A stretch of 52,593 nucleotides of DNA, taken from positions 1 to 52,593 of the IMG/VR virus record IMGVR_UViG_3300050119_000254; one strand, given 5' to 3'. Made by a program: the position numbers and the translations under genes. Below are positions 5,553-39,029 of the stretch, one piece after another; within the stretch, counting starts at the first letter, position 1, and every line of letters begins with the position of its first letter. Under the pieces are notes generated by a model, which was not told where the DNA came from, did no database searches, and saw nothing but the letters and a program-made list of their open reading frames with translations. The DNA comes from a virus. Its lineage: Duplodnaviria; Caudoviricetes.

Positions 5553-5565
5553 CATTCATTCCGTC

Positions 5566-8281: not shown

Positions 8282-8291
8282 GAGATCTAAG

Positions 8292-9974
8292 ATGCGACCA
8301 TTCCCACATTGCAGCAGAGCGGTTGAGCTTCATTTCAAGCGTCGGAAAGTGATCGAGCGCGTCCGGCCAGCTATTCCGATTCCATCTGTGCATCTGACAT
8401 TGATGGAAGCTGATCTTGACCTTCCGACGTCTCCCCCAGATCAACCGCCAGCCCGCCCTATGTCGCCAAGCGATGGAGGCGATGGAGTCGGACAAATCAT
8501 CCGCCAATATAACACGATCTGGCTGTCGGCTAAAGAATATTTTGACGGCAAGGTCGATGATCTTGTTCATCTGCCCGCCGAGTCCAAGGACAAACTTTTG
8601 GCGCAGGCCGCGTCCGGGCTGATCGCCCAATATGAGCTCGACCCGTCCAAGGAGCCGAGCCGCGACCATATTCGTGACACCGCGCTGATGCTGGCCGACA
8701 AGATCGACGACCTTTACCAGGATCGTGGACCGGACGAGCAGAAGGAATATGCCAACCGGCTCGCCCAAGGGTTGCGGGAATTTCACAACCAGGTCGATCC
8801 AGGGAGCGAGGAGCCCGATGATGAACCAACCGACGACGCTCCCGAGAAGCCTGCCAAGCCCAAGGTATCCAAGGAACCCAAGCACGACTTCGACCGCGAC
8901 ATGGCTAGGGAGCTGCCGAACCGCCATCAAGGCGTGACGAGGCGGCGTCCGCAGGAATCAATTGACGAATCATTGAAGAGTAACTGCGCCGCAAATGGTG
9001 TGGACGTTGGGTTCTTGAATCAGTTAACCAGCGCCGTGTATCCGAGGGCGGGTAGACTTAATAGTCGCGTCTTTAATAAGCTGTTTAACGCCTACGCTGA
9101 AAGGATTGCCGGATGTTTTGCGCCAGAAGATAGTGAGGATACGTTGAAGCATCAATGTTTCGATTATTTACCGTTTTACCGTAAGGAAATTCGAGATAAC
9201 GACATTGCGTTGGGCGTAGCGCTAGCGATTGGGGATGATAAGGAAGATCAGGACGAAGTGTTGAGCATGTTGCGTGGAAGAAGTCCATGCAAGACCCTCA
9301 TCAACAGACTCCGGAAAATCTTGATCGTTGGGCTTGTATCGACGCCATCCGGCACGTCACCCAAGACGTTGATGGTGGCACGGGTTGGTGACTATGAAGG
9401 TATAATTCGCCAGCTTGATGCGCATTCAGTGAAGGACGGTGAAGAAGCTGGTCAATGGCGTTGGATAGTTATTAGTGAGAACGATTTCGACTTTGAACAG
9501 CGCGGCGTTGTCGATACCATGGATCAAGCTAAGGAGGCGGCGGAGGCGACCATTCGTCAGCACAATGCAAAATCCGGCAACAGCGCAGACCTGCCGGAAT
9601 CGATGGTAGATCGGCTGCTGGAGACCGACCCCACGTTGAGCATGAACTTTGTCCATTGCCCGGAGTGCGGGCTCAAGTGCCGCCGCTCCAATGGGAAGTG
9701 CTTGTGCAACCATTGTGGTCATCGATTCAATCACGTGATCGATGATGATCTTCCCGAGTCCACCCATTCGCGCAATGCCTTGGCGCCAGTTAAGGACGCA
9801 CTGATCGCTTACATCAAGCAGCACCCATATTCGGCGTTCACTCCTGAGAGCTTGGCGCACGCTACTGACCAGGACATCATCATGGTGCTGAGCGCGCTGC
9901 GATCATTGAAGCGCGAGGGAGCATTGCGAGTCCAGAAGCGCACTCGTCGCAATCTCTACGAGCTTCCATTATGA
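8292..9974 (+). CDS. modular DLPES polyprotein (acidic helical part, Trp-rich module, Zn ribbon, winged-HTH-like module)
   Basis: DLPESMVDRLLE, CPECG..CNHC, DLPES, then an HTH-like tail. Confidence 0.7.
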   Translation: MRPFPHCSRAVELHFKRRKVIERVRPAIPIPSVHLTLMEADLDLPTSPPDQPPARPMSPSDGGDGVGQIIRQYNTIWLSAKEYFDGKVDDLVHLPAESKDKLLAQAASGLIAQYELDPSKEPSRDHIRDTALMLADKIDDLYQDRGPDEQKEYANRLAQGLREFHNQVDPGSEEPDDEPTDDAPEKPAKPKVSKEPKHDFDRDMARELPNRHQGVTRRRPQESIDESLKSNCAANGVDVGFLNQLTSAVYPRAGRLNSRVFNKLFNAYAERIAGCFAPEDSEDTLKHQCFDYLPFYRKEIRDNDIALGVALAIGDDKEDQDEVLSMLRGRSPCKTLINRLRKILIVGLVSTPSGTSPKTLMVARVGDYEGIIRQLDAHSVKDGEEAGQWRWIVISENDFDFEQRGVVDTMDQAKEAAEATIRQHNAKSGNSADLPESMVDRLLETDPTLSMNFVHCPECGLKCRRSNGKCLCNHCGHRFNHVIDDDLPESTHSRNALAPVKDALIAYIKQHPYSAFTPESLAHATDQDIIMVLSALRSLKREGALRVQKRTRRNLYELPL

Positions 9975-12690: not shown

Positions 12691-13431
12691 ATGGCACTTC
12701 CGATTTCCACTTGCTACGAAGGCGACAATTATCAGTTTCTAGCTCGGACCAGGGCGTTCATCACGGCGCTACCCGACATTTTCGAGCGTCTGCATGATCT
12801 CGATTTGGATCATTCCTATCGTGGGATGCAGAAGCTGAGGTTTGTGGAGCAGCTGGAGCTCGGGGCCGGGACGACCCATTTTTATAATGCCAAGAAGGAT
12901 ATGTTGTCAGTGTTCCCGATGGCGTTTAGCGCCGGTGGGCGGATCGATCTTACCCTCTACGAAGGGCTGGGACAGCGCCATTGGCAGACCGGGATGTCGT
13001 CGGCCCACAAGGTGACGTGGGCGAGGTGTCTGGTTAAGGCCGACCAGCACGTCGTGGACCGGATTGATGAAGCGCTCGCCAGCGCTGATGACGGTCAGTT
13101 TCTCGACATCGTCGGTCTCTTCCACTCGGCGACCGAGAAGCTGCAGGCCATCCATATCGTCAACGCGATGGTGCGCAACTCGATGTCGATCACCCAGTTC
13201 GCCAACATGAGCGTGCGTGACTACCCGGCCACCAAAGATTTCTGCGCTGGCGACCGGCCCTACTCACTGATCCCACTGCTGAGCGCTTACGCAGCCCGTT
13301 GCGTCCGCCGGTATCCGGAAGCCTTCGCTCAGTATTGTGCGCGCTCAGGCCACCTTCCAGTTTCCGAGACGTCAACGGAGGCCGCGTTCGTGAGGCTGTT
13401 CAAATCGGTGACGCTGAGCGACCATGCGTAA
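12691..13431 (+). CDS. hypothetical protein
   Basis: 246 aa ORF; CTAGTTA 5 nt before ATG. Confidence 0.65.
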   Translation: MALPISTCYEGDNYQFLARTRAFITALPDIFERLHDLDLDHSYRGMQKLRFVEQLELGAGTTHFYNAKKDMLSVFPMAFSAGGRIDLTLYEGLGQRHWQTGMSSAHKVTWARCLVKADQHVVDRIDEALASADDGQFLDIVGLFHSATEKLQAIHIVNAMVRNSMSITQFANMSVRDYPATKDFCAGDRPYSLIPLLSAYAARCVRRYPEAFAQYCARSGHLPVSETSTEAAFVRLFKSVTLSDHA

Positions 13432-14434
13432 GCTGAGATGGCGAAAGAACAGTAACGGTGGACTATGGACTGATTGGGCAACGGACAGATATCGTCGAAC
13501 CACAGAGTCCGATTACATATTTGTCATATCGAGAGACAACGCGGGGTGGTTGTGGCGTTGTTACAACGTTGTTGACGATACCATATTTTTCGGTACGGTG
13601 ACGATGCGCATTGCAGCGATCGAACAAGGCGAGAAGATGGCCGCACAGACGATTGGAGACAGCGATCAAGACCTCCCTGAGTCGCTGTTGGAAGCCAACG
13701 AATATCACGACGCTAGTGACCCCAAGTCGTTGACGCGCGCCACGGTTGGGTACGGTAACCGTCTTTTCAAGATCGAGCTCGGAATATATGGTAATGAGTT
13801 TCTGGTGGCGGGAGACTGTGCTGGTGATGCGATGGATGCGCTAATTGACTGGCTGGATGGTCATAACTCTCCGTGGGTGATGACGCCAGAACAAGAGGCA
13901 TCGCTCGATGACTGTGAGGGTGAGCACTATCTCAGTGGTGGTAATTACGGGAAACACTTGGATTGCGGTGCTGAGGAAGTATGGATTACACAGGTCCCGG
14001 CTAAGGATGCTTTCCTGACCCGTGAGGAACAGCGCGCGATCGCAAGGGCGAAAGCTGCGGAGCTCGATCTCCCAGAGTCATCGAAATGGTCCAAAAACTG
14101 GCTGTTCGATCTTGTCTATCGCAGCCTCGATGGCGTTAATCGAGAGTTATTAGCTGCTCGAATATCCGAGCAAGCTAAGTGGATCATTATTGCCGGGAAA
14201 GTGACAGGTAAAGGTTCCTTGCAAAACACAGTGGATCGAGACATTGGTTACCAACGAGCGGCTGAATGGGCGGGCCGCGATTGGGGTCGCATCATTACTA
14301 GGCTACAAGGATTGCGTGACGGTCGCAATTATCGTCCGGTCAGAATCGACCTCACGCCCGGTGTGGACTGGATGTCGGGAGGCCCGCAAGACCTTCCGGA
14401 ATCATTAGCTGACCAACTATTGGGGGCCAAATGA
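13424..14434 (+). CDS. three-module DLPES polyprotein with DLPESLADQLLG tail
   Basis: DLPES at 13670, 14066, 14390. Confidence 0.75.
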   Translation: MRKLRWRKNSNGGLWTDWATDRYRRTTESDYIFVISRDNAGWLWRCYNVVDDTIFFGTVTMRIAAIEQGEKMAAQTIGDSDQDLPESLLEANEYHDASDPKSLTRATVGYGNRLFKIELGIYGNEFLVAGDCAGDAMDALIDWLDGHNSPWVMTPEQEASLDDCEGEHYLSGGNYGKHLDCGAEEVWITQVPAKDAFLTREEQRAIARAKAAELDLPESSKWSKNWLFDLVYRSLDGVNRELLAARISEQAKWIIIAGKVTGKGSLQNTVDRDIGYQRAAEWAGRDWGRIITRLQGLRDGRNYRPVRIDLTPGVDWMSGGPQDLPESLADQLLGAK

Positions 14435-14778
14435 GCAGCGCCATCATCAGATTCCTGACGCAAAGGTCATCCATCCAGACCCGCAACCACCGCGACATCC
14501 TGGACCTGACCGGCACAGTGCCGCCGTCTACTCCACCGCCTCCGGGACCGCGACAGGTGTTGCTCACTCATTCACCGGGTCAGATCGACGTTCGAATCCT
14601 CTATCCGGACGGCCAATCTGAGATGATGTACCATGGTCCGGACCTGTTCCTGAAGCTCACCCAGAGAGGCTTACCTGCTTACAAGCTGGAGCGAGTCATC
14701 GATCATCTTTGGAACTTTTATCAAGTTTATGTGGACTGTGACGAGGAGCCGAGGCCACCAAAAATTCAGCTCGAATGA
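14431..14778 (+). CDS. hypothetical protein
   Basis: ATGA-coupled ORF. Confidence 0.65.
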   Translation: MSSAIIRFLTQRSSIQTRNHRDILDLTGTVPPSTPPPPGPRQVLLTHSPGQIDVRILYPDGQSEMMYHGPDLFLKLTQRGLPAYKLERVIDHLWNFYQVYVDCDEEPRPPKIQLE

Positions 14779-16043
14779 GAAACTGGCAAATCAACAGATT
14801 TGGTGAGTGGAAGTATCATTCGTCGAGCGGCATCCATCGCCAGTACCATGTTCACATATGGCGCGAAAAACAGTGGGTGTGGGAGGCGTCCCACAAAGTC
14901 GATAATTGTCACCATGTGATTGGTAGAGGACATTCAACTAACGTTGAGCTGGCTGCCCAAGAGGCTGAGAAATCGATCCGGACGCACGCTGCCACGCTTC
15001 AAGTGGATCAGGATCTTCCGGAATCTATGGGCGGTGAGGTGGTTCTTAAACCCGGTGACGTTATCTTGGTGCGAGGGATCTCCAGAACATATCGCGAGGT
15101 AGTCGATCATTGCGCCCATGATTTGGGAACCGTATACGCGCGCTGCACCGGGATAAGGGACCCTCGGTTACATGGTGGAGCATGGCCAATAAGCCAAGTG
15201 ATCGCTGTCAAGATCGACGGTCAGATGCGGCCCGTTAAATATGACGAAGATACTAGTAAGTTTTGGTGGATCGACAACGATCTTCCGGAGTCCACAACGT
15301 CATTGAATTGGAAGGAAGACCCAGATGGCGCGTGGAGCGCTCGCCTTGGCACCAAATACGAGGCAGCTATCAGGAAGAAATCTGACAAATGGGTGTGGGA
15401 TGTGACCTACAATCTTGGAATGTTTAGCTGTGAGCAATGTGGATACGGGGCGGAAGACACTATTGAACAAGCCAAGATGAAAGCTGCTGATACGATTCGC
15501 GGTGAAATTTCAAGCCGCCGCAGTGTCAGTCAAGATCTTCCAGAGTCCGCGCCGGAATGGGTGGACATGACCATCACCTCCCTGAACGTTGACGCTGACG
15601 GTAAATATCTTGGATTTTATCGAGGCGAGTTTACGTGGCCGCGTAATATTGGCAATCTGATCATTAAGGTCCCATCGATAACGTTTGACGGAGACATTTG
15701 GGTGGAGGGTGACATCGTGGCGGATGGTGACGTCAATGTGGCGGATAATGAGATCTCGGCAGGCGGCAACATCCTAGTGAAGGGCGACATCGTGGCGGGC
15801 GGCATCATAGCGAACGGCAACGTCTGGGCGAACGGCAAAATCGTAGTGGATGGTGGTAACATCAGCGTGGGAAAGGGAGGTAGCGTCCGATCACCACACA
15901 TCACGGCGTTACGCGTTTATACAAATTATGACCGACACGACGTCGTTGATGGTCAGATCGTGCGGAGATCTGGCGCTAGGACTGGACAAAAGTCTAGGGG
16001 CCAAGATCTTCCGGAATCATTGGCTGACCGGTTGCTCGGTTAA
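14775..16043 (+). CDS. four-module DLPES polyprotein (two Trp-rich, one SH3-like, one bactofilin-like beta-helix) with DLPESLADRLLG tail
   Basis: DLPES x4; GDI.V.G repeats in the last module. Confidence 0.75.
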   Translation: MRNWQINRFGEWKYHSSSGIHRQYHVHIWREKQWVWEASHKVDNCHHVIGRGHSTNVELAAQEAEKSIRTHAATLQVDQDLPESMGGEVVLKPGDVILVRGISRTYREVVDHCAHDLGTVYARCTGIRDPRLHGGAWPISQVIAVKIDGQMRPVKYDEDTSKFWWIDNDLPESTTSLNWKEDPDGAWSARLGTKYEAAIRKKSDKWVWDVTYNLGMFSCEQCGYGAEDTIEQAKMKAADTIRGEISSRRSVSQDLPESAPEWVDMTITSLNVDADGKYLGFYRGEFTWPRNIGNLIIKVPSITFDGDIWVEGDIVADGDVNVADNEISAGGNILVKGDIVAGGIIANGNVWANGKIVVDGGNISVGKGGSVRSPHITALRVYTNYDRHDVVDGQIVRRSGARTGQKSRGQDLPESLADRLLG

Positions 16044-16119: not shown

Positions 16120-18054
16120 ATGAAACCAGCAAAGCCTGCAGGATGGCAACCGTTGATTGAAGAGAAAATTTTTCGCCCCATTGGGGAGCCCGTGTTGGTG
16201 GAGTCCGCCGAGCTAGGTCGCAAGGTCTTGCGGCAGCATGGCGTCATCCAATCGTACACCCAGCGCAACCAGAATGGTCGGCTCTATCCGAAGAAGCTTT
16301 GGGAGGCGCTATTCAAGCCGGACAGCGACTTCATGGAACGGCTCCAGAGTCGCGCCATGGTCGGGCTTCTGGAGCATCCGGAGGACGGGATCACCAGGCT
16401 CGACCGAAGTCCTAGCCATCTGATGACGGAAGTCCATTTTGCCTCGCCCAAGGAGATCACGGAATCCCGCAAGTCCGACCCCAAGCACCCGTTGGAGGAA
16501 GGCGACATCATTGGGACGCTCGAAGTGATCGAAGGGACCCGTAACGGCGATGAGCTCAAGGCGCTCATCGAAGCCAAGGTTCAAATCGGCGTCAGTTCAC
16601 GAGGCGGCGGAACGCTCAAGGAGGATGGGGAGGGCCACACCGTCAACGAGGATTATGAATGCGAGACCTGGGACGTCGTGCAGTCGCCATCCGTCAGCCG
16701 CGCCATCCCGCGCAAGACCGAGGTCACTCATGAATCGGCTCCGGTCCCTCCCGTCCCACCAGTCGTGGAAGCTGTTCCGCCAACTCCTGCCCCGGTCGTG
16801 GAGTCCAAGGTTCCGGTCGCTCCAGTGGTCAAGCTTTTCTGCGAGAACGGCGCCGTCCGTTACGAGATCGTCGAGGATGCCACCGGCTCCCATGTCTACG
16901 ACCGCAAGGATGAGAAAAATCTTCACGACTGCGCCACTCCGGAACTGGCTCACCAATGGGTCATGGAAAACCTTAAGGCATCCGCTCCCGCCCAAGCATT
17001 ACCGCTCGCGCCTGTCGTCAAGCCTTCCACGCCAGCTCCCTCGGTTCCACTTCAAGAATCAACCAACACCACTATTATGTCACATCGCGATAAGCTCCGC
17101 ACCCTCGACCTGGACGTCACCCGTCTCACTTCCACGCCCGTCAAGGGTTTGAAGCCATCGGCCAAGTCGTCCATGTTCGAATCTATCACCAGCCTCCGCG
17201 TCGAGATCGCGGGCGTCCTCAAGGAGGACTCGACCCTGCAGCCGATCGCCGACAAGCAGCTCAAAAGGCTCACCGAATACGAGGACGAGCTCGATGCCGA
17301 GCCGATTCCGGAGGGGCCTGTCTCCCACGAGGGTGACGGCGACTTCGAGGACTTTGATCACGCCGACGAAGGTGGTGGTGACGACGATGTGATGTGCCGG
17401 GCCGCCGCCAAGCTTCGGACCCTCGGTGACGAGGGGGATGAGGAAGCTGCCGGATTGGCCGATGAACTCGATGCCGTGTGCGGTGATGGTGATGAACCGC
17501 CCATGGATGACGTCCCACCGCCCGCCCCTGAGGGCGACGCTCCTCCGATGGAGTCGAAGCTCCGCAGCTTCATCAAGAGGATGAAGGGCAAGTACGTCAA
17601 GCTTGAGAGCGCTCATCGCCGCCTGACCGCCGCGACCGCCACGCTGTTGGAGCGCTACCGGACCGTCAAGAAGCACCTCACTGAGAACGGTGGGGGGCGT
17701 CCCGCCGACCAGCAGTCGATCGAGGAATATGAGAATGCTGCCCGCGACATTGCGGACCGCTATAACCGCCATATGATCGAGATGGGCAAACTGCTCATGC
17801 AGGCCAAGCAGCCTGGACTCTATGAGGCCAATGAGGACCGCTTCAAGCGCGTCCGCACCTGGAAGCAGTTCGGCGAGGTCTCCCAGCAGGTCGTGGCCAA
17901 GCGTCCGCTTCGCGAGGGCGTCCAGCCTCCGGTCAAGAAGCCAGCATCGAGCTCCTCCACCAATCCGCCGCCCGATCCGCCTCTCACGGAAACCGTCCAC
18001 CCGTCCGTCATGATGGCAACGCGCGCCCGCCACCGGTCCACCATTACGGGATAA
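16120..18054 (+). CDS. prohead protease (T4 gp21-like) fused to an acidic/coiled scaffold region
   Basis: NQNGRLYP, GLLEHP, GVSSRGGG, WDVVQSPS motifs; directly upstream of the capsid gene. Confidence 0.9.
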   Translation: MKPAKPAGWQPLIEEKIFRPIGEPVLVESAELGRKVLRQHGVIQSYTQRNQNGRLYPKKLWEALFKPDSDFMERLQSRAMVGLLEHPEDGITRLDRSPSHLMTEVHFASPKEITESRKSDPKHPLEEGDIIGTLEVIEGTRNGDELKALIEAKVQIGVSSRGGGTLKEDGEGHTVNEDYECETWDVVQSPSVSRAIPRKTEVTHESAPVPPVPPVVEAVPPTPAPVVESKVPVAPVVKLFCENGAVRYEIVEDATGSHVYDRKDEKNLHDCATPELAHQWVMENLKASAPAQALPLAPVVKPSTPAPSVPLQESTNTTIMSHRDKLRTLDLDVTRLTSTPVKGLKPSAKSSMFESITSLRVEIAGVLKEDSTLQPIADKQLKRLTEYEDELDAEPIPEGPVSHEGDGDFEDFDHADEGGGDDDVMCRAAAKLRTLGDEGDEEAAGLADELDAVCGDGDEPPMDDVPPPAPEGDAPPMESKLRSFIKRMKGKYVKLESAHRRLTAATATLLERYRTVKKHLTENGGGRPADQQSIEEYENAARDIADRYNRHMIEMGKLLMQAKQPGLYEANEDRFKRVRTWKQFGEVSQQVVAKRPLREGVQPPVKKPASSSSTNPPPDPPLTETVHPSVMMATRARHRSTITG

Positions 18055-18102: not shown

Positions 18103-19563
18103 ATGAACGGAATCTCCTCAAATCAACTCGCCGAAACCTTCGTCCGGGGCACTCGGCTGGCCGAAACCAGCATGGGCATCGGCGTCAAGGATAGTCTCAT
18201 CGAGGCCAAGGGCTGGAAGGAGATGGTGGCCGGGATCAAGGACGACAAGAAGCGGGCTCTCTGCGCCATCATGTTGGAGAACTACCGCAAGTACCGCAAA
18301 GGGCTTGATGAGGCGACCAGCACCCTGCAGGTCGGCAACTTCGATAAATGGGCGTTCCCGATCATCTCGATCGTCAGTGAGAACCTGATCGCTCAGGACC
18401 TGGTCAGCGTTCAACCGCTGGAGGGTCCCTCAGGATTGGTGTTCTTCATGAACTTCACGGCGGGCCAGTCCAAGGGCAACGTCCAACGCGGCGCCAAGAT
18501 CTGGGATGCCCGCACCGGCCATGCGGAGCGCTTCCTCGACAGCAGCGACCGGGTTCCCAATGAGCCAATTGTGTGCACGACTGGAGACCTGAGCAGTGGA
18601 GCGGCGATCAGCCTCGCCTATGCGCCAGTGGTTCCCGGCACGGTCTCGGTCGCCATCGGCACGTCAGTCCTGCGCGATGATGGAAACGGCAACCTGGTCG
18701 TGGTCTCAGGGCCAGCAGGCGGCGCCGGAATTGACGTGGGCGACATCGACTACCCGACCGGGTTGATCAGCTTCACGACCGCTGAGAACACGGCCACGGT
18801 CGCCGAGTTCAGCTACAATTACAATCCCGAGCTCAACCCCGAGGCCCAGCAGGTCGACTTTGAGATTCAGTCCAGCCCCATCTACGCTCAGGAACGGAAA
18901 CTGCGCGGGCGCTGGTCCACTGAGGCCGCTCAGGCCCTGGAAGCGCTTCACCAGATCAACGCCGAGGACGTAGTCTCAACCGCGATCACCAACCATCTGC
19001 AATGGGAAATCGACCGCGAGATCATCGAGGACCTCCGCAGGCAGGCCGGAGCCGGTCTGGTCCGTTGGTCCGCCCAGATCCCGGCGACCAGTTACATTTC
19101 GTACACCGAGCACAAACTGTCGTTCATCGACGCATTGGTGACCGGAAGTAACTTCATCTACCGGGCGACCAACCGGGCAAAGGCTAACTGGGTCCTGGCG
19201 GGCATGCAAGCGACCAACATCCTGGAGACCCTTCCCCAGTTCGAGCCCCATGGTGGCGCCGATACCGAAGTGGAGGGCGTGAGCATGCTCGGCACGATCG
19301 GTCGCACCAAGGTCTACAGCGATCCTCACTACAATGTCGACGAGGCCCTGATGGGATACAAGGGCAACGACTTCGTTCGCACCGGCTACATCTTCGCGCC
19401 TTGGATCTTGCTCTACTCCACGATGCTCATCACACTGGATGACTTCATCGCCCGCAAGGGGTTTGCTAGTCAGTACGGGAAGAAGCTCGTCAATTCGAAG
19501 TTCTATTGCAAATTGCAACTCAGCGGTTTCTCGGCGGAGTTTGGCAGCCTCGCCGGTACGTAA
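18103..19563 (+). CDS. major capsid protein (T4 gp23-like)
   Basis: LIAQDLVSVQPLEGPSGLVF, RKLRGRWSTEAAQAL, EIDREII, GYIFAPW. Confidence 0.95.
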   Translation: MNGISSNQLAETFVRGTRLAETSMGIGVKDSLIEAKGWKEMVAGIKDDKKRALCAIMLENYRKYRKGLDEATSTLQVGNFDKWAFPIISIVSENLIAQDLVSVQPLEGPSGLVFFMNFTAGQSKGNVQRGAKIWDARTGHAERFLDSSDRVPNEPIVCTTGDLSSGAAISLAYAPVVPGTVSVAIGTSVLRDDGNGNLVVVSGPAGGAGIDVGDIDYPTGLISFTTAENTATVAEFSYNYNPELNPEAQQVDFEIQSSPIYAQERKLRGRWSTEAAQALEALHQINAEDVVSTAITNHLQWEIDREIIEDLRRQAGAGLVRWSAQIPATSYISYTEHKLSFIDALVTGSNFIYRATNRAKANWVLAGMQATNILETLPQFEPHGGADTEVEGVSMLGTIGRTKVYSDPHYNVDEALMGYKGNDFVRTGYIFAPWILLYSTMLITLDDFIARKGFASQYGKKLVNSKFYCKLQLSGFSAEFGSLAGT

Positions 19564-19589
19564 GCAATCGTCTCCGGTATTTCCATCAC

Positions 19590-19621
19590 GGTCGGGCCGA
19601 CTCGCAAGGGTCGGCCCGACC
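19590..19621. terminator. GC-rich hairpin between convergent genes
   Basis: GGTCGGGCCGACTC-GCAA-GGGTCGGCCCGACC; no clear U-tract. Confidence 0.65.
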
Positions 19622-19625
19622 TGTA

Positions 19626-20507
19626 TCAGCTAATCCGTAGTGGATATGGCAGTGGCTTGGTTAGATCCAATTGATGGATGCAAACTCCGTGCACATGCTT
19701 ACTATGATTACAGTTGGCACATAGACATTGGAACAGTCCGGCGTCGTTGCCATCTCGCGCAATCGTTCGATACAACTTACCGCCCCGTAATCCGTTCTCG
19801 CTACGCCCTTCGCCGAATATATGATCGACGTTCAATCGTGTGAATCCGTCTTCCCCACAACACACGCATTTATTTCCAAGTGCAGCGAGTGCAGCCACTC
19901 TGGATATGCGATAGTCTTTGTGCACTCCCTTACCAACCCACTCTAGCGTAATGAGTTTGTGTTGCTGACAATTGCGACACATCGTTTGGAGATTATCGGG
20001 GAAACCGGACTTCACTAACATGTGATAATTGTTGCCGCTAAATCGGCGACCGTTGGTACGTGCTTTTCGCTCTATTGCGCCATCGCTGTCGATATGATCG
20101 AGCGTTAAGAATTCCACCGGTAAAACCTTATCGCAACCAACACAGGTGCGACCATAATGATCAAACACTGTGGATATATGCAGTTCGCGCCGCGCCCGTA
20201 CGCACTTTCGTTGTGCGGCTAATTGTCTTTGGTGCCGTTCTTCCTTTGTTAGTTTGGGAGGCAGTGGATGTAACAACCGATAAGTAGCATGTCGAGCCTT
20301 CTCGGCAGCCAAACGTTGCTCTCGGTGCTCCTGATAGTATTTCCCTTGCGTCGCTTGCTTCTTGGCCTTTACCTCTGGCTTAGCGCCTTGCTTGCGAGCG
20401 GACTCACGGCGAGCTACAGGGTTGGCAGCATAACGGGCACGGGCCTGAGCCTTGATCGTCTCATGGTGCTCGGCGCGATACTGACGCATATATTCGGCTG
20501 TTGCCAT
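19626..20507 (-). CDS. HNH-type homing endonuclease (two HNH units)
   Basis: CVGC..LTLDHI..QTMCRNC and CVCC..NVDHI..QCLCANCN. Confidence 0.85.
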   Translation of the reverse strand: MATAEYMRQYRAEHHETIKAQARARYAANPVARRESARKQGAKPEVKAKKQATQGKYYQEHREQRLAAEKARHATYRLLHPLPPKLTKEERHQRQLAAQRKCVRARRELHISTVFDHYGRTCVGCDKVLPVEFLTLDHIDSDGAIERKARTNGRRFSGNNYHMLVKSGFPDNLQTMCRNCQQHKLITLEWVGKGVHKDYRISRVAALAALGNKCVCCGEDGFTRLNVDHIFGEGRSENGLRGGKLYRTIARDGNDAGLFQCLCANCNHSKHVHGVCIHQLDLTKPLPYPLRIS

Positions 20508-20556
20508 ACTAAAAAAGAACGTAAGAACATTTCATAGTCGCCGCATTCTTTTATAT

Positions 20557-21396
20557 ATGATATTAACACCAGAACAACGAGAACACCGTCGCGCCACCAG
20601 ACAGGAGCGTCGCCGACTTAACAGAGAGGCCAACAACGAAGCGCATCAAAAATTGCTTCAAAGAGGTGGTCGATATATGGAGTTACACGGCAGCAAGTAT
20701 ATCGGTAGATATGTGAAGGGTAGTAAACATTGGCGCGATGAGAACGTTGAGTGGGTGAATTTCCGCAACTCTGTGCTGGAATTGCGAAAAAAGTATTTGT
20801 GTTTGGCCCAATACGGCGGTAAATGCGTCGGGTGCGGAGAAACCCACCCGTATCGGCTGACGTTCGACCATGTTAACGACGATGGGGCCGACGAACGACG
20901 GAAGGGTGTCAAGATATACCCATGGTTGATCAGGAACAATTTCCCCAAGGATATTATCCAATGCTTATGCTGGAATTGTCAGCAGTTCAAGAGACCGCGC
21001 CAGGAGGGTACATATTTTGATATGTTACATCGGGGAATGGTAACAGCGCTTGGTGGCAAGTGCGTTACTTGCGGAATTGATAACTTAAGGCTCCTAACCG
21101 TGGATCATCTTGATGGTGGCGGAAAGCAACACATGCGGACGATCGGCGCAAGACGCCTCTATAACGAAGTGATCAAACATATTGCGGATGGAAAATCTGG
21201 CGTCTATGCGGCCAAGTGCATATCTTGCAACAGCGCGTCCGGCATCATCAGGGTGCGCTACCCAACTATGAAGGAGCGGTTTGAGAAATATCGGGAACAC
21301 TTGAACCCGGAAGATATTCTACTGATGGAACGGGATATATTGGCCGCTGAGCTACTCACCGCCTACCATCATGACGTTACTCAAGAGAGGCGATAA
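20557..21396 (+). CDS. HNH-type homing endonuclease (two HNH units)
   Basis: YGGKCVGC..LTFDHV..QCLCWNC and LGGKCVTC..LTVDHL..CISCN. Confidence 0.85.
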   Translation: MILTPEQREHRRATRQERRRLNREANNEAHQKLLQRGGRYMELHGSKYIGRYVKGSKHWRDENVEWVNFRNSVLELRKKYLCLAQYGGKCVGCGETHPYRLTFDHVNDDGADERRKGVKIYPWLIRNNFPKDIIQCLCWNCQQFKRPRQEGTYFDMLHRGMVTALGGKCVTCGIDNLRLLTVDHLDGGGKQHMRTIGARRLYNEVIKHIADGKSGVYAAKCISCNSASGIIRVRYPTMKERFEKYREHLNPEDILLMERDILAAELLTAYHHDVTQERR

Positions 21397-21664
21397 ACCA
21401 CGCCACCACTATCGCGCTTCGTGGGAGATGTCGTCGGGAGAATTCGATGACTTAGCGTTTGGGATAATAAAGCATGACTTTACATTGTATGTTAATCTGG
21501 TTCGCGATACGTTTATCTGGTGCGTGTTTGATCAGGGATCATTTCCGTTATTCGAAGGGTCTAGTCGCACTATGCGAGGCGCTAAAAAGGCTGCCGAGTA
21601 CGCAGTTTCACGAGTGTTGTGCGCACGGAGGCGTAACATCGGCGGTTTCGACCTGCCCGTATGA
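21371..21664 (+). CDS. stand-alone Trp-rich module ending FDLPV
   Basis: W...FIWCV...GSSRTMRGAKKAAE pattern shared with the polyprotein modules. Confidence 0.65.
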   Translation: MTLLKRGDKPRHHYRASWEMSSGEFDDLAFGIIKHDFTLYVNLVRDTFIWCVFDQGSFPLFEGSSRTMRGAKKAAEYAVSRVLCARRRNIGGFDLPV

Positions 21665-21876
21665 GTGATCCGATCCAGCGCGGGTATCAGGGTGTAATCT
21701 GGTTGAACGATCACGGTGTCAATGTTGTGGTCACGAACGTTAGAAAGGTTGTGTCGCTCAATATGACGCTGCACCGGTACACGGTCGTGGATGGTCAGAA
21801 CAGTCATGTGACCAGCATCGTATTCGCGAGGCGTCAACGATCACGGAAGGGATTGGAAGATCTTGACCTGCCATGA
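21661..21876 (+). CDS. small paralog 1 (RGY.G...VNV.V...Y.V.DGQ.S.V.SIV family), ends DLDLP
   Basis: similar to the next two ORFs; ATGA coupling. Confidence 0.7.
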   Translation: MSDPIQRGYQGVIWLNDHGVNVVVTNVRKVVSLNMTLHRYTVVDGQNSHVTSIVFARRQRSRKGLEDLDLP

Positions 21877-22127
21877 GCATGGAGCATCATCTTGGAATCA
21901 GTCGTGGATACCGGGGCCGTGCCAGACGTGACGATTCCATGGGTGCGGTCGTTAACGTGACGGTGCTGCGAGTTTGCCGGACATCGACGTTTATGTATCG
22001 GCCATACTTGGTCGGGGACGGTCAAACCAGTCACTGGGTCAGCATCGTGTTTGAACGCTGTCGGAGTCGGCACAGGTTCGATCGGGCAGCCATGGGATCG
22101 TTTAATGATCTCGACCTACCTGTATGA
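21873..22127 (+). CDS. small paralog 2, ends DLDLPV
   Basis: similar to the flanking ORFs. Confidence 0.7.
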   Translation: MSMEHHLGISRGYRGRARRDDSMGAVVNVTVLRVCRTSTFMYRPYLVGDGQTSHWVSIVFERCRSRHRFDRAAMGSFNDLDLPV

Positions 22128-22345
22128 TCGATCCCGCTGAAATTAAGCGCGGGTATCGGGGCCGGGTAAGGCTCGCTTCCGGCAAGATCCTGAATGTTGT
22201 GGTGACGAAGGTGGGGCGCAGTCCTCCCAATGCTATGTTGGCCAGATACGTTCAATACACGGTCGTGGACGGGCAGAGCAGCTACGTCACCAGCATCGTT
22301 GATCCCCGTCGATGTGATTCGGTGGATGAGGACTTGCCTGATTGA
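22124..22345 (+). CDS. small paralog 3, ends EDLPD
   Basis: similar to the upstream ORFs. Confidence 0.7.
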   Translation: MIDPAEIKRGYRGRVRLASGKILNVVVTKVGRSPPNAMLARYVQYTVVDGQSSYVTSIVDPRRCDSVDEDLPD

Positions 22346-22359
22346 CGCTACTTATTGTG

Positions 22360-22675
22360 ATGAAAGCTTTGCGATATCATGTGAAACCTGGCGACAAGGG
22401 TCCGTTCTATGCTTATTCGGAAGACTTTATCGGCGCGCTGGTGGGACCTTTTACCACTTTGGAAGAAGCTTCATCGGCACGTGAGAAGGATGCAAGCCTA
22501 TACCGATTACGGGGACGACTTCCTTGGTGTGGTGACGCCGAGCCATCCAGAGTTCGAAGAGCTTAAAGATAATGGGTTGGGGATCATCTCGCCTGAACGG
22601 GATAGAAACATGAATAAGTCCAAGCTTGATGCGTCGGACTTGCCGGAATCACTGGCCGATCGATTGCTCGGATAA
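22360..22675 (+). pseudogene. frameshifted single-module protein with DLPESLADRLLG tail
   Basis: MKALRYH..GPFTTLEEA joins HRHVRRMQAY..DLPESLADRLLG if one base near 22471 is removed. Confidence 0.6.
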
Positions 22676-22725
22676 CGATCCACGTTGGGCTTGGGATAGA
22701 CGGTGGAGGCGTTTGACCTTCCTGA

Positions 22726-22754
22726 TTGACAGCCACCAAGCTGTCCGGTATCAT
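22726..22754 (+). promoter_or_regulatory. sigma70-type promoter
   Basis: TTGACA-17 bp-TATCAT upstream of the RNA ligase. Confidence 0.7.
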
Positions 22755-22764
22755 TCATTGTCCT

Positions 22765-23787
22765 ATGAGCACTTTTAAAGTCACGGTCGAACAGATTACC
22801 ACGTCAGTCCATCACCCGAACGCGGACCGCTTGAGCTTGTGCGGGCTCGCCGGGCTGTCGTTCCAGTTCGTGACGATGCGGGATCAATTCAAGCCGGGCG
22901 ACCTTGTCGTCTATTACCCGGTCGACTCGATCCTCCCCACGTTCCTGATCGAGCGAATGGGGTTGGTGGGCAAGCTGGCGGGCGCGGAGCGCAATCGCGT
23001 CAAGACCGTGCGGCTGCGCGACGCCATTTCGCAAGGATTGGTCGAGCCAGCGTCGATGATCGGGCCGGACCTACAGATCGGCGCTGACGTGACTGAGCTG
23101 CTTGGCGTCACCAAATGGGAGCCGGATCTGGTCTCGGTCAAGAACGCCACATTGGTCCCGATCGGCACGATTGGCTTATCGCCATACGATATCGAGGGCG
23201 CGGAGCGCTATCAGGATGTGGTCGAGCAATTGCTGGACGTGCGCGTGCAAGTGACCGAGAAGCTGGAGGGTAGCAACCTGTCGGTGACGGCGCGTCTGGG
23301 CGAGCCCACGTTGGTCGGGATGCGCAACAAACTATTGATCGAGGATGCCGGTAAGCAGCATCCGATGTGCGAGGCCGCTCGGCGGCAGGGGTTGATTATA
23401 GCTGCCGAAAGTCTTCGCAACTGCTACACGGAGCAGACGACCGTTTACGGTGAATATTTGGGGCCGGGCGTGCAGTCCAACATCTACCGGATGACCGAGC
23501 GCGAGATTCGCTGCTTTGACGTCCGAGTAGGTGACCGGTTTCTGGACTGTGAGCGCGACTGGCCGCCGAATTTCCGGTGGGTGCCGGTGCTGGCCGAGAA
23601 CGTGACGTTGAGGGAATTCCTGGACGGGCGCACCGTTCAGCAGGCTAGCAACGGTGCGTCGCTGCTCGGCGGCGTGCGACGGGAGGGCATTGTGATCAAG
23701 CCAATGATTGAGATGCGGCACCCCACGTTGGGGCGATTGATCATTAAGCAGCGCAGTCCTGAGTATCTGGCCAACTCTGATCTCTAA
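22765..23787 (+). CDS. RNA ligase, DRB0094/Rnl2-like with N-terminal OB fold
   Basis: HPNADRL, VKTVRLR..ISQGL, TEKLEGSN, YGEYLGPGVQ.N.Y, REGIVIKP. Confidence 0.9.
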   Translation: MSTFKVTVEQITTSVHHPNADRLSLCGLAGLSFQFVTMRDQFKPGDLVVYYPVDSILPTFLIERMGLVGKLAGAERNRVKTVRLRDAISQGLVEPASMIGPDLQIGADVTELLGVTKWEPDLVSVKNATLVPIGTIGLSPYDIEGAERYQDVVEQLLDVRVQVTEKLEGSNLSVTARLGEPTLVGMRNKLLIEDAGKQHPMCEAARRQGLIIAAESLRNCYTEQTTVYGEYLGPGVQSNIYRMTEREIRCFDVRVGDRFLDCERDWPPNFRWVPVLAENVTLREFLDGRTVQQASNGASLLGGVRREGIVIKPMIEMRHPTLGRLIIKQRSPEYLANSDL

Positions 23788-23912
23788 TGACAATCTTCTT
23801 CCCTGACAATTGTTCGGACCAGTATATGATAGATTGGCTAATCGCGCGCGGCTTCATCCGAGCTCGAATTAAGATCGACTGGAACTACCGGGTAGTTGAG
23901 ATATACCTGTAA

Positions 23913-24716
23913 ATGGATCATCCCCATTGTCATCAGCGTCGCATCCGGGACTCTCTGGAAGCTCAGGACCGGATAGAGCACCCCGAGCTCTTTGATCGCC
24001 CGATCCAAGACTACCTGCTTGCGCATGAGCGGCATTCCGCTGACATCGGACACCATATCTCCAAGTACGAATGGATCGGCACGGTCGGGACGTTTCCGAG
24101 ATGGTGCTTCACCGCAAGATTGGACGGAGTCATTGGCGGGGCCGTGTTGCTCAATCTCCCCAATGCGTTCTCGAAGCTGCTTGGTGACGGCACCAAGCCG
24201 ATGGAGTGCCTGATCCAGCGCGGCGCCTCGGCCTCGTTCGGCCACCCGCATCTGGCCAGTAAGCTGATCATGTGGTCGATCCGATGGATGGTGGCGAACA
24301 CCGATAAGCGAATCTTTTACGGGTACTCAGACGAGCGGGCGGGGGAGCGTGGCATCATCTACTCGGCCTGCAACTTTCAATGCTTGGGAGGAGGGTTCGG
24401 GGCAGCCGCCATGTATCGTCACCACACCTGGTCGGCTGGTAAGGAGTTCTGCGCCCATTCACTGCGCAGGACTGGAGTGCTCAAAAAATGGATGAAGGAG
24501 CGCGGGATGCCGTGGCTCCCCGAGTACGCGCTGCCTAACGGGTTCAAGAACTTGGCAACCTTACCTGTCTCGATTAAGGAGGCGTGGTACCGGTGGGGCG
24601 ATGCGATCGTCAAGGAGTCCGAGAAGATTAAGATCCCCACCAAGGTCAAATGGGTGATGGTGCTGGGCCGGGACCGCCGTGAGACTAAGCAGTTACGGGC
24701 ACGGATGAAGCTATGA
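23913..24716 (+). CDS. Mom-like adenine-modification (GNAT) protein
   Basis: YEWIG, QRGASASFGHPHLASKLI, YSDERAGERGIIYSACNF. Confidence 0.75.
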   Translation: MDHPHCHQRRIRDSLEAQDRIEHPELFDRPIQDYLLAHERHSADIGHHISKYEWIGTVGTFPRWCFTARLDGVIGGAVLLNLPNAFSKLLGDGTKPMECLIQRGASASFGHPHLASKLIMWSIRWMVANTDKRIFYGYSDERAGERGIIYSACNFQCLGGGFGAAAMYRHHTWSAGKEFCAHSLRRTGVLKKWMKERGMPWLPEYALPNGFKNLATLPVSIKEAWYRWGDAIVKESEKIKIPTKVKWVMVLGRDRRETKQLRARMKL

Positions 24717-29589: not shown

Positions 29590-30135
29590 GTGAACCCATT
29601 CGATTTCGCTCAATTACTGGAATCCGGTGACAAGTCATATAGTTGCACAATGTTAATGATGCCGGAAGAGGTTTGCCGGATCATCCAGCAAGTTCAGGAC
29701 GATATTGACGAAGATGATCTTGCTGGCGACGGGTTGGAGACGGAATATCACACGACAATCATGTACGGAACGCATACCGACGACCTTGACGAGATCAAGG
29801 AGGCACTGCGGTCAACCGGCATTAAGGAAGTAAGGTTCAAGATCGGCGACCTGACCAGCTTTCCGCCGTCCGTTTACTCGGATGGCGCTTCGGTCCTCAA
29901 ATATGACGTGGAGAGCGACGACCTGAACGAGCTCCACGAAGCTCTGGCCAAGCTTAAGTGCACGGAATCGTTTAAAAATTATCACGCGCATTGTACAGTC
30001 GCGTATGTCGATAGTGGTGTGGTCGACCGTTACACCGGCAAACCTTTCCCGAAGCGCAGGGAGTTGACATCCGATCAAGTTATGTTTTCAACGTCCGACC
30101 GCAAAAAGACGACGTTCAAGCTGTCCGACCCATGA
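29590..30135 (+). CDS. 2H phosphodiesterase, Acb1/T4 gp57B-like, with putative capsid-targeting leader
   Basis: two HxT motifs (YHTTIMYG, AHCTVAY); leader MNPFDFAQLLE. Confidence 0.75.
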   Translation: MNPFDFAQLLESGDKSYSCTMLMMPEEVCRIIQQVQDDIDEDDLAGDGLETEYHTTIMYGTHTDDLDEIKEALRSTGIKEVRFKIGDLTSFPPSVYSDGASVLKYDVESDDLNELHEALAKLKCTESFKNYHAHCTVAYVDSGVVDRYTGKPFPKRRELTSDQVMFSTSDRKKTTFKLSDP

Positions 30136-30656
30136 CGCCTGCGACCTATGCGGAATTGTTGGAGGACAAGATCCGGATCATCCATTACTCAGATGAGATG
30201 TTCGATGACGACGAAGAAATGGACGACGACTGGAAATATGAGGCCAGGCAATCGATCGGTGAGCAAGTTACATGCTGCTTTCATTCGAACGATCTACGGT
30301 GGGTGAACAATATGGATATCGGGATGCTGGCCTTGGGTCGGGACCCAGACGAATATTGGGACCCGTTCGTGGCCGGGTGCACAGTCTATCGGGAATACCA
30401 GGACCCAGATAGTAACGAGCATGTCTACAGTTTTGACATCGCGGTTCGCAAGAGCCATCAGAGAGGCACGATCGGGTGGAGCCTAGTTAAGGCATCGATC
30501 CAGGAGGCGAGATCGCTGGAATGTGACGTCATCAAGCTTTATGTCATCAACCCGTTGATGTACAAGATGCTGACGAAAATGTTCGGGTTCCGGGACGAGG
30601 AAGAGCCTCCGGATGCCCGCAACGGGTTCCGAGCCCATGTAGTGCTCTATCTATAA
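30132..30656 (+). CDS. GNAT acetyltransferase with putative capsid-targeting leader
   Basis: FDIAVRKSHQRGTIGWSLV acetyl-CoA motif; leader MTPATYAELLE. Confidence 0.75.
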   Translation: MTPATYAELLEDKIRIIHYSDEMFDDDEEMDDDWKYEARQSIGEQVTCCFHSNDLRWVNNMDIGMLALGRDPDEYWDPFVAGCTVYREYQDPDSNEHVYSFDIAVRKSHQRGTIGWSLVKASIQEARSLECDVIKLYVINPLMYKMLTKMFGFRDEEEPPDARNGFRAHVVLYL

Positions 30657-30658
30657 GG

Positions 30659-30904
30659 ATGAGCCCGACCGACTTTGATCAACTGCTGGAGGATCGACCA
30701 GGAACAACCACGCTCGACAATTTGTCACCGGCGGGGCAACGGCAGGTGCTCAAGATGGTGCAGGACTATCTGGCCACCCATCCGATCCCGGAGTCCGGCA
30801 ACCCAGACTTTACCGAGCTGGCCCGTCAGACTGGATTAACTGACCAGTCGCTGATCGAGGTGCTCAATCAGGTGGCCAGCCGTCGTCAACCTGTTCACGC
30901 GTAA
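30659..30904 (+). CDS. small HTH-like protein with putative capsid-targeting leader
   Basis: leader MSPTDFDQLLE; FTELARQTGLT. Confidence 0.6.
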   Translation: MSPTDFDQLLEDRPGTTTLDNLSPAGQRQVLKMVQDYLATHPIPESGNPDFTELARQTGLTDQSLIEVLNQVASRRQPVHA

Positions 30905-30929: not shown

Positions 30930-32179
30930 AAACTAGAAACAAATCATTGATGTGCCGAGGTCGTCAAATCATATACATTCTTTAGGCCAGTGATCGCAGC
31001 ATTCAAATATCGGCTCTACCTCAATGTTGATCAGCGCATCGCGCTGGCCCAGCACTTTGGCTGTGTCCGGTGGGTGTACAACTGGGCGCTCGCTAAGAAG
31101 TCCACCGCATGGAAAGACGAAAAGAAAACGATTTCACGGTTCGATCTCAGTGCCGAGCTACCAAAATTGAAGCGTGCCGAAGGCACGGAGTGGCTGGGCG
31201 AGGTCACCGCCCAATGCCTCCAGCAGTCGTTACGGTGCCTTGATCAGGCATACCAACACTTCTTCAAGGACGGTCGTGGGTTTCCGAAGTTCAAGCGCAA
31301 AGATGGTTGCCAATCGTGCCAGTTCCCCCAAGGCGTGAAGACTGATTTTGAAGATGATCGATTGACGTTCCCACACATCGGTTCGGTGAGAGCAGTGTTC
31401 GACCGCCGGTTTCATGGCAAGATCAAGACCACAACGGTCTCAAAGACATCCACTGGTAAGTACTTCGCATCGATCACCGTTGACACCGGTGTGGACGTTC
31501 CCGAAACGGAGCCGTACTCGATGCATTCATCCGTGGGCGTCGATCTTGGTCTCACACACTTTGCCACGCTCTCCACCGGAGAGAAAATCGACAATCCACG
31601 TCTAGCGCGCAAGGCCAAGCAGGCGTTGGCACGCGCCCAACGTCGTTTATCTCGTTGTAAGGCCGGTTCCAAGAACCGCGCGAAGCGGAAGCTGAGGGTG
31701 GCGCGCATTAGTGAGCGCGTCGTTAATCAGCGACAAGACTTTCTTCATCAGTTATCCACGAGGTTGATTCGCGAGAATCAAGCGATCTGCCTTGAGACGC
31801 TCAGCGTCGAGAACATGAAGAAGAACCGTTGCCTCGCGTTTAGCGTGAGCGACGTGGGCTGGTCCACTTTTGTGGACCTATTGAAGTACAAAGCCATCAA
31901 ATACGGTAAAACCATATTGAGAATTGGACGGTTCGAGCCGTCGTCCAAACAGTGCTCATGCGGTGTCGTGAACCACGAACTGACGCTCCGCGATAGAACA
32001 TGGACGTGCAGGTCATGTGATGTCACGCACGATCGTGACGTGCTGGCGGCCCAGAACATACGCCGAATGGCGTTCGACAACTTAGTAGGGCAGGATATGC
32101 CCGAACTTAACGCCTGCCGAGATTCCGCCATAGCGGGGTCGATGAAACAGGAAGTATCAAACCAGACCAGATACAAATC
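30930..32179 (+). mobile_element. tnpB-only (IS1341-like) element flanked by ATCATC(ATC) direct repeats
   Basis: no tnpA; ATCATCATC at 30921-30929 and 32177-32185. Confidence 0.75.
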
Positions 32180-32273
32180 ATCATCGTTTGTTGCGGCGGC
32201 CACGGGCTGTGGCGCGGATGGGGTTATGGTAATGGTGGGTTGCTGGGTTTGCTGCTCATTGTGCTGCTTCTGA
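30990..32273 (+). CDS. tnpB: TnpB RNA-guided endonuclease
   Basis: AFKYRLY HTH, GVDLG, ICLETL, Zn finger CSC..CRSC, HDRD.LAA.NI; RuvC D-E-D intact. Confidence 0.95.
   Translation: MIAAFKYRLYLNVDQRIALAQHFGCVRWVYNWALAKKSTAWKDEKKTISRFDLSAELPKLKRAEGTEWLGEVTAQCLQQSLRCLDQAYQHFFKDGRGFPKFKRKDGCQSCQFPQGVKTDFEDDRLTFPHIGSVRAVFDRRFHGKIKTTTVSKTSTGKYFASITVDTGVDVPETEPYSMHSSVGVDLGLTHFATLSTGEKIDNPRLARKAKQALARAQRRLSRCKAGSKNRAKRKLRVARISERVVNQRQDFLHQLSTRLIRENQAICLETLSVENMKKNRCLAFSVSDVGWSTFVDLLKYKAIKYGKTILRIGRFEPSSKQCSCGVVNHELTLRDRTWTCRSCDVTHDRDVLAAQNIRRMAFDNLVGQDMPELNACRDSAIAGSMKQEVSNQTRYKSSSFVAAATGCGADGVMVMVGCWVCCSLCCF
32082..32179 (+). ncRNA. putative omega/reRNA 3' scaffold (5' boundary unknown)
   Basis: overlaps the tnpB 3' end; near-identical copy at 49007-49099 with a compensatory stem change. 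Confidence 0.65.
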
Positions 32274-38304: not shown

Positions 38305-38601
38305 TTAATTTAGTAAACGGTTGACCAGCGATTCCGGGAGATCCTGATCAGTTGATGTCGGTTGCACTGGTTTACCATCAACGATTTCACAACGGCGACC
38401 ACGGATGTAACAACGCTTGGTGGTGATGCTTCCTCCCACCCTGATGGTGAATTGCGCCCTGACCTCACCCTCTGCCCTGATGGCGCCCTTGAACCTTATC
38501 CGGGCGACCTCAATGGTCAGGTTATTGAGGTCCGCTGGTAATGTACCGGTATAGTAACATTGGGCGTTGACGTCTTTGGCGGTGATGGTGAGATCGGACA
38601 T
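38305..38601 (-). CDS. stand-alone beta-helix module with DLPESLVNRLLN tail
   Basis: paralog of the last module of 14775-16043. Confidence 0.7.
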   Translation of the reverse strand: MSDLTITAKDVNAQCYYTGTLPADLNNLTIEVARIRFKGAIRAEGEVRAQFTIRVGGSITTKRCYIRGRRCEIVDGKPVQPTSTDQDLPESLVNRLLN

Positions 38602-38923: not shown

Positions 38924-39029
38924 TGTGGCGGGCGGGGATCGAACCCGCGCGAGTGAAGTGGCTTATGTTCCACCCATTAATCGGCAGCAGCCGCGCCGCC
39001 CATTGCGTTTACCATTACGCCACCGCCAC
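38924..39029 (-). tRNA. atypical tRNA-like RNA (anticodon not assignable)
   Basis: acceptor stem GTGGCGG/CCGCCAC, D arm GCGT-AATGGTAA-ACGC, T arm GCGGG-TTCGATC-CCCGC; ~55 nt non-canonical middle. Confidence 0.65.

Follow-up and report, generated by a model that had tools for sequence, protein, structure and literature searches.

Small genes ending in D-L-P resemble predicted cleavage products of multi-module head-cluster proteins in an uncultured T4-like myovirus

In bacteriophage T4, the internal proteins and Alt are processed by gp21, an S77-family protease encoded beside the gp23-type capsid gene. Cleavage follows the rule L/I-x-E, the cut falling after a Glu with Leu or Ile at P3, and removes short terminal peptides from cargo; Alt is processed at its C-terminus too, and an Asp at the last position of the capsid-targeting sequence (CTS) stops cutting while targeting is still allowed (accessible part of PMC9026906). 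The S80-family proteases of the giant phages, phiKZ gp175 and SPN3US gp245, likewise act after Glu on numerous proteins of the head and of ejection, and a preference for Ser at P1' is described for gp245; single precursors are cut at multiple sites and the protease removes its own C-terminal propeptide (accessible part of PMC10052503). The system described here is best read as a variant of T4-type head-cargo processing, carried so far by two uncultured records. The first is IMG/VR virus record IMGVR_UViG_3300050119_000254, one contig of 52,593 bases that was analysed at its full length and is called the window below. As in T4, its S77-type protease gene lies beside a gp23-type capsid gene. Proteins of its head-gene cluster contain a repeated DLPE↓S joint (the arrow marks the predicted scissile bond), and an array of four mini-genes, mA to mD, ends in D-L-P or in D-L-P plus one residue. 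We consider it somewhat likelier to be right than wrong that these mini-genes are pre-cut versions of head-cargo modules, with a DLP ending selected for a function of its own, for which docking to the protease or prohead is our guess.

The locus departs from both models. Its stereotyped element is C-terminal or internal, whereas that of T4, in the accessible part of the T4 account, is an N-terminal 10-mer. The element here (D-x-D-L-P-E-S-L) tolerates far less variation and strings several modules into one protein, and it is accompanied by a gene set that stops exactly at the predicted scissile position. In the giant phages, by contrast, the motif A/S-x-E has few other determinants and its cleavage removes long N-terminal propeptides, and stand-alone 'pre-cut' genes are not mentioned for SPN3US or phiKZ in the accessible part of the source (PMC10052503).

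Its gene content marks the window as part of the genome of an uncultured T4-like myovirus, because PHROGs/Pfam-type profile scans identify a gp23-type capsid protein, an S77-type prohead protease, a UvsX-like recombinase, a gp32-like SSB (a protein that binds single-stranded DNA), a helicase and a baseplate hub. The closest cultured capsid protein is 34% identical and uncultured relatives reach 54-73%; a blastn search of 21000-24000 against cultured phages gave zero matches. The protease gene lies directly upstream of the capsid gene, adjoining the multi-module genes. Its product matches Peptidase_S77 (8.1e-10; score 39, cut-off 27), Peptidase_S80 (2.2e-6) and phrog_207 (2.4e-26), and residues His86 and Ser159 are invariant across 9 sequences.

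DLPES occurs 14 times in the open reading frames (ORFs) of the window: three times in 3216-5552, twice in 8178-9974, three times in 13424-14434, four times in 14775-16043, and once each in 22409-22675 and 38305-38601 (minus strand). These sites divide the proteins into pieces of 53-474 residues, mostly small (about 50-160 residues), and four proteins end in DLPESL[AV][DN][RQ]LL followed by 1-3 residues. Across the 30 internal DLPE sites of the window and of the second record, G001, the consensus is D-Q-D-L-P-E↓S-L-x-D-R-L-L, with Ser at P1' in 26/30, Leu at P2' in 18/30, and Asp at P6 and Gln at P5 in 14/30 each. The capsid relatives (54-73% identity) keep, by tblastn, the 269-residue C-terminal part of 3216-5552, the middle of 8178-9974, and the regions 12691-13431 and 14431-14778, as well as the protease and the capsid protein. 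Missing from them are 13424-14434 and 14775-16043, along with the added modules and the mini-genes (tblastn, loci L001-L008). The 14775-16043 protein has tblastn matches in G001 alone and none in L001-L008, and a near-length search with it in a collection of 5.8e9 proteins returned only its own sequence. No DLPES lies within 10 kb of the capsid gene in the eight capsid relatives, and they have no repeated L-x-E pentapeptide. As judged from these comparisons, the D-x-D-L-P-E↓S-L-x-D-R-L-L joint separates small modules in lineage-specific proteins, those of the window belonging to the head-gene cluster.

DLPE↓S is probably a prohead protease cleavage site, as the initial annotation had supposed, because it suits the S77-type protease that the window encodes and also obeys the L/I-x-E rule of T4 (accessible part of PMC9026906); all 30 internal DLPE sites obey that rule by construction. 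The capsid protein contains L/I-x-E at residues 9-11, 19-21, 32-34 and 68-70, all before the Pfam domain, and these candidate sites read LAE↓T (twice), LIE↓A and LDE↓A. Among the protease-scaffold proteins, that of the window and those of seven relatives (L001-L007) each have an L/I-x-E site 19-22 residues from the C-terminus, which takes the form D-L-x-E↓S in 4/8 proteins. Such conservation suggests, by analogy, that a C-terminal propeptide is removed, as reported for giant-phage proteases. In these proteins (17917-18051 in the window) the site precedes a basic C-terminal tail. Encapsulin cargo proteins, otherwise unrelated to one another, carry a short C-terminal loading peptide for an HK97-fold shell. 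The SLADRLL tail that follows the joint may work similarly, with the differences that it has no sequence relation to those peptides, that they involve no protease step, and that the mini-genes have no tail altogether.

Two further motifs were seen beside these sites. Five plus-strand genes (Table 1) begin with an 11-mer, M-[NST]-P-x-x-[FY]-x-x-L-[LVI]-E (for example MNPKDFSKLVE and MTPATYAELLE), which looks like the T4 CTS with its L/I-x-E cut site; the carriers include RNA-ligase/2H-like and acetyltransferase-like proteins. In more distant relatives, the C-terminal endings ...LLESL and ...KLLESLVKTSERVFRRN are found (L006 4213-5517 and 11752-12033; L007 4275-5531 and 11729-12193) on a protein of the head cluster and on the small gene that immediately follows the capsid gene, a looser L-x-E↓S-L in the same positions.

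The mini-genes mA to mD are joined by three 4-nt ATGA overlaps at 21661, 21873 and 22124, while the start of mA overlaps the HNH gene 20557-21396 by 26 nt, a junction that is not ATGA. The initial annotation had listed these four consecutive genes with the endings FDLPV, DLDLP, DLDLPV and EDLPD and had called three of them paralogs; coordinates, junctions and kinship were all verified. mB, mC and mD are 41-47% identical (BLASTP, E 1e-10 to 6e-8) and share 25 invariant columns, and mA is a distinct family. The ratios of nonsynonymous to synonymous substitution (dN/dS) among the three paralogs are 0.32, 0.22 and 0.27 over 67-69 codons, with dS at about 2 (saturated). Because dN/dS between paralogs is 0.22-0.32, mB, mC and mD are real, old genes under purifying selection and not chance ORFs. 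None of the mini-genes has a PHROGs or Pfam match. We also considered whether their N-termini might mimic a P1' Ser after removal of Met, and rejected this, M-S being the start of 2/4 window genes and of 0 G001 genes.

It was borne out that, as first proposed, the array genes end where modules flanked by DLPE↓S are predicted to end. The terminal class shares the upstream D-x-D-L-P with the internal sites, Asp standing at P6 in 8/12. As they stand the endings are not cleavable sites, with P1 being Val, Ile, Asp, absent or, once, Glu, and with nothing after it. The frequency of such endings was tallied over six-frame ORFs of at least 40 residues ending DLP.?$, with the expectation taken from composition. 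They are enriched in the window (4/453 ORFs, 0.25 expected, Poisson P 1.3e-4) and in G001 (7/372, 0.20 expected, Poisson P 2.3e-9), where DLP is the commonest C-terminal tripeptide of all ORFs, and number 0/1390 in the eight loci around related capsid genes (L001-L008). The seven G001 cases include a paralog trio coupled by ATGA overlaps at 6882 and 7202, with 27% identity among its members and the endings DLPE, DLPI and DLPI; one of them thus stops exactly at the predicted processed end. The other four are of unrelated sequence. The minus-strand gene at 43068-43337, which had been counted with the array for its ending, does end in KDLELP, but this is ELP and not DLP, a possible variant (Table 1).

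Whether a homolog keeps the ending could be asked of the paralogs and of G001 alone, since our searches returned no relatives from elsewhere for mB to mD, nor for mA with its module family. All of mB, mC and mD have D-L-P unchanged though their tails differ in length and sequence and dS is saturated, and all three members of the G001 trio keep it, as do at least four further unrelated ORFs. These observations bear on the possibility that the ending is a functionless leftover, produced when multi-module genes underwent fission or lost their tail at the joint. Such an origin would agree with the resemblance of the stand-alone families to module families, with the layout of mA to mD plus the following mE, which mirrors that of the four-module gene 14775-16043, and with a 9-codon frame ending AFDLPD downstream of the array, which shows that such ends get left behind. 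A neutral tripeptide would not outlast the divergence seen in the two trios, however, and we regard the leftover account as doubtful, quite unlikely to be correct. Because two paralog trios have kept it through saturated dS and changes in the linkers, and because unrelated ORFs carry it too, the DLP ending is probably functional in itself, and the suggestion that the acidic DLP terminus is the signal fared well in this respect.

The constraint lies on the peptide and not on the DNA, since every codon of DLP(E)(S) differs synonymously between copies: Asp is GAT or GAC, Leu is CTT, CTG, CTC, CTA, TTG or TTA, and Pro uses all four codons. The final residue is free over the 11 endings (Val 3, Ile 2, Asp 4, Glu 1, absent 1), yet in the coupled genes the overlap forces an NNA codon there. 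This variation makes it very improbable that the nucleotides themselves, GAYYTNCCN...TGA, are what is selected, whether as a recombination joint in the shuffling of modules, for translational coupling or within a promoter. The three ATGA overlaps directly after DLP codons would suit a nucleic-acid signal, as would two ends with 14/16 matching bases that flank mE and a TTGACA at 22726 that is the -35 box of an 11/12 promoter match; DLPx also ends genes that have no coupled downstream gene (mD and four G001 ORFs), and the mA and mC ends share only the bases forced by their amino acids and the ATGA overlap. The earlier idea that these codons also act as recombination joints is not supported, given the same synonymous differences and forced bases, and the TTGAC of the downstream remnant belongs to the promoter-like box.

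The mini-genes were compared with the modules by hhalign, with the DLPx ending removed beforehand. mA pairs with the F1 module family, which has members in 3216-5552, 8178-9974, 14775-16043 and G001 (P 0.003, 34 columns); mB to mD pair with a family that groups 38305-38601 with the fourth module of 14775-16043 and with G001 37330-37845 (P 0.003, 22 columns); and the G001 trio pairs with modules of a six-joint G001 protein (G23182; P 0.0018, 36 columns). Column shuffles reached the observed score in 0/100 cases for each of the three pairings, and most other pairings gave P 0.1-0.8, some 0.01-0.08. The profile evidence for homology between stand-alone and module families is thus weak but consistent.

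Models of the mini-proteins were made with AlphaFold2. That of mA (7-row alignment) has a mean predicted local distance difference test score (pLDDT) of 70.1, with five strands and a C-terminal helix at 68-90, followed by a loose GGFDLPV tail (residues 91-97, pLDDT 51). For mD the mean pLDDT is 57.2, with an all-beta four-strand core and residues 59-73 below 50 and predicted disordered. The DLP ending is therefore predicted to sit on a flexible tail, like short linear motifs. Foldseek returned zero matches at E <=0.001 for the mA model against the PDB, the best being a small methane-monooxygenase inhibitory subunit (E 0.048) that tells little about the fold; the quality of the mD model did not permit such a search, and SH3-like small barrels among the Atlas neighbours of mD are a lead only.

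An acidic D-x-D-L-P-x-COOH on a disordered tail, kept across unrelated small folds, might alternatively be a short linear motif by which cleaved modules and stand-alone proteins bind a common host or phage partner, or which sets protein stability. Mimicry of the bacterial SSB tail would be a special case: the SSB tip DDDIPF resembles the ending in having an acidic run, then I/L-P-x, at the extreme C-terminus of a flexible tail (accessible part of PMC5872125). The mini-genes also have neither the SLADRLL tail nor an N-terminal L/I-x-E targeting-like motif (a scan found that motif in five other window genes and in the protease, and in none of mA to mD), which fits a cytoplasmic life. The terminal Phe of the SSB tip is absent in 11/11 endings, however, none of which has any terminal aromatic residue, and the neighbours here are head genes and not replication partners, and SSB mimicry, offered in the initial annotation, is poorly supported, although the acidic residues and L-P are present. 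None of the specific functions suggested there gained support. No partner is identifiable, and a separate one would have to recognise, by coincidence, the very residues that form P6-P2 of the putative protease site. We judge a motif for a host or phage partner to be unlikely.

The pre-cut reading would work as follows. Multi-module precursors would be cleaved at DLPE↓S to give small head-cargo proteins ending in ...DLPE, and the mini-genes would be free-standing relatives of those modules whose primary product already resembles a processed one. Their frames stop at the predicted scissile position or one residue either side of it and so retain the recognition half of the joint (D-x-D-L-P) and drop the scissile half (E↓S), and selection on the peptide maintains D-x-D-L-P(x)-COOH. 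The weakest step is that the ending serves as a handle, with whatever reads the joint binding the module without cutting it; the likeliest reader would be the protease inside the prohead core, through its substrate groove, and binding there could serve prohead loading or modulation of the protease. In this strong form, with D-x-D-L-P-x-COOH as a new capsid-loading or protease-docking tag and a product-like C-terminus parked uncut in the prohead protease groove, the proposal is tentative and, in our estimate, improbable rather than probable.

G001, the second record with the motif, has 45,433 bases (estimated 31% complete) and encodes, beside several tail-bearing proteins, a 722-residue protein with six joints that adjoins the portal gene. 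It has few proteins in common with the window, and the two share a 146-bp element at 99.3% identity (Table 1); they may come from separate parts of a single genome, or from genomes that are very closely related. Other carriers were sought with a degenerate DNA pattern for the joint plus tail, DLPESL[AV][DN][RQ]LL. Six loci were found in viral contigs, of which one, G001, was real; the 13 loci in metagenome contigs included none with a second DLPES, and of nine in bacterial genomes none was real. A DQDLPESL pattern gave seven loci, three in G001 and four by chance, and a scan with the family alignment and one with a 42-nt piece of the shared mobile element each found G001 only.

Several points weigh against the pre-cut reading. 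The system is carried by two records only and, as these may derive from the same or close genomes, it is safer to let G001 add to the tally than to take it as proof of independent conservation; paralogs make up 3/4 window and 3/7 G001 cases, and the independent events number fewer than 11. Searches of 5.8e9 clustered proteins and of 1.84e9 representatives gave no relative of mB to mD from outside the window: 3/23 candidates were the window's own three proteins, and a second search gave seven matches including the same three. The other four were rejected, being long repeat proteins with 7-15 weak stretches, the two inspected of which were artefacts. Near-length searches with mA and its module family likewise returned only their own sequences. 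The homology between mini-genes and modules covers short stretches (22-36 columns) at hhalign probabilities of 10-15%, and the mini-protein models are of low to moderate confidence and lack an informative fold match. The candidate sites of the capsid protein have neither Asp at P4 nor Pro at P2, so that the full DLPES is not a requirement of the protease, and cleavage alone does not explain the strictness of the joint. By the T4 analogy, targeting would reside in the removed tail (SLADRLL), which the mini-genes lack, and their products would therefore perhaps not be packaged and may be cytoplasmic. Finally, we infer the roles in cleavage, packaging and binding from sequence throughout.

If the pre-cut reading is true, it would allow the recognition, loading and trimming of cargo by a T4-like head to be read from sequence by a simple rule, and would provide a natural dissection of a viral protease site, with the recognition half kept where cutting is impossible and the scissile half added elsewhere. 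Protein targeting into T4-type heads would be open to short-peptide tests, and a compact tag for protein delivery by phage heads would be suggested. It would also give an annotation handle for a block of orphan small genes, mB to mD and mA with its module family having no relatives outside the window in our searches. If the docking tag is real, the phage could load 'pre-cut' proteins or regulate maturation with them, and the joint would permit cargo domains to be swapped between multi-module precursors and single genes.

Downstream of the array lies mE, in which two ORFs overlap (Table 1). Only the second reaches the DLPESLADRLLG tail, ending in DASDLPESLADRLLG, the full joint plus tail; mE contains an internal tandem repeat, YAYSEDFIGALV... 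and YTDYGDDFLGVV..., which a +1 change of frame, a mistake in the assembly or the presence of two genes could account for. The near-identical DNA ends reported at 22331 (GACTTGCCTGATTGAC) and 22715 (GACCTTCCTGATTGAC) were confirmed, with 14/16 bases equal, and flank the mE gene or genes at 22360-22675. The 'orphan remnant' AFDLPD likewise exists as a frame, at 22700-22729, though it has only 9 codons and the TTGACA overlapping it doubles as the promoter-like -35 box. A relic gene end is plausible here, because a short AFDLPD-stop frame is unlikely to occur by chance. The T4 late-promoter sequence TATAAATA is not present on the plus strand of the window, and 19400-24000 contains no terminator-like site.

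Table 1. Positions of the genes and other features discussed (window coordinates unless G001 is named).
Feature	Positions	Strand	Remarks
11-mer carriers	142-495, 29590-30135, 30132-30656, 30659-30904, 46522 onward	+	
778-aa protein	3216-5552	+	three DLPES sites; 269 aa after last site are the sole part conserved in relatives
598-aa protein	8178-9974	+	two DLPES sites near C-terminus; last module ends YELPL
336-aa three-module protein	13424-14434	+	sites at 13670, 14066, 14390; ends DLPESLADQLLGAK
422-aa four-module protein	14775-16043	+	four DLPES sites; ends DLPESLADRLLG
Prohead protease with long scaffold-like C-terminal region	16120-18054	+	644 aa; S77/S80 domain at residues ~25-205
gp23-type major capsid protein	18103-19563	+	Pfam Gp23 2.5e-48, domain from residue 77
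mA	21371-21664	+	97 aa; starts MTLLKRG, ends GGFDLPV
mB	21661-21876	+	71 aa; starts MSDPIQRG, ends EDLDLP; ATGA overlap at both ends
mC	21873-22127	+	84 aa; starts MSMEHHLG, ends NDLDLPV
mD	22124-22345	+	73 aa; starts MIDPAEIK, ends DEDLPD
mE, two overlapping ORFs (22360-22566; 22409/22490-22675)	22360-22675	+	frames 0 and +1
9-codon frame TVEAFDLPD after TAG stop	22700-22729	+	probable relic of mini-gene 3' end
sigma70-like promoter match, 11/12	22726-22754	+	consensus match only; precedes RNA ligase gene, ATG 22765
98-aa single-module protein	38305-38601	-	ends DQDLPESLVNRLLN
89-aa gene	43068-43337	-	ends KDLELP (ELP; possible variant ending)
146-bp element	window 49057-49202; G001 (L015) 3524-3669		shorter copies: window 32082-32185, G001 (L016) 333-432

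The shorter window copy of the shared 146-bp element lies at the 3' end of a TnpB-like ORF (30990-32273), and the full copy stands between two halves of a QueC-like gene, 49186-49527 and 48726-49004 (minus strand), which looks interrupted. In G001, a 54-codon frame ending in DQDLPESLADRLLDIQ (21012-21176, minus strand) overlaps, in another frame, the 3' end of the portal gene (21068-23173, minus strand), and could be either the portal tail in a shifted frame or a small gene of its own.

ARAGORN found zero tRNAs in the window; an Rfam tRNA match of 44.8 bits at 38924-39029 (minus strand) spans 106 nt against a 71-position model and may be an interrupted or unusual tRNA. HNH endonuclease-like genes are found at 5434-7071 (plus), 19626-20507 (minus), 20557-21396 (plus) and 51917-52453 (plus), the second and third of which separate the capsid gene from the mini-gene array; 5434-7071 and 23913-24716 encode Mom-like domains.

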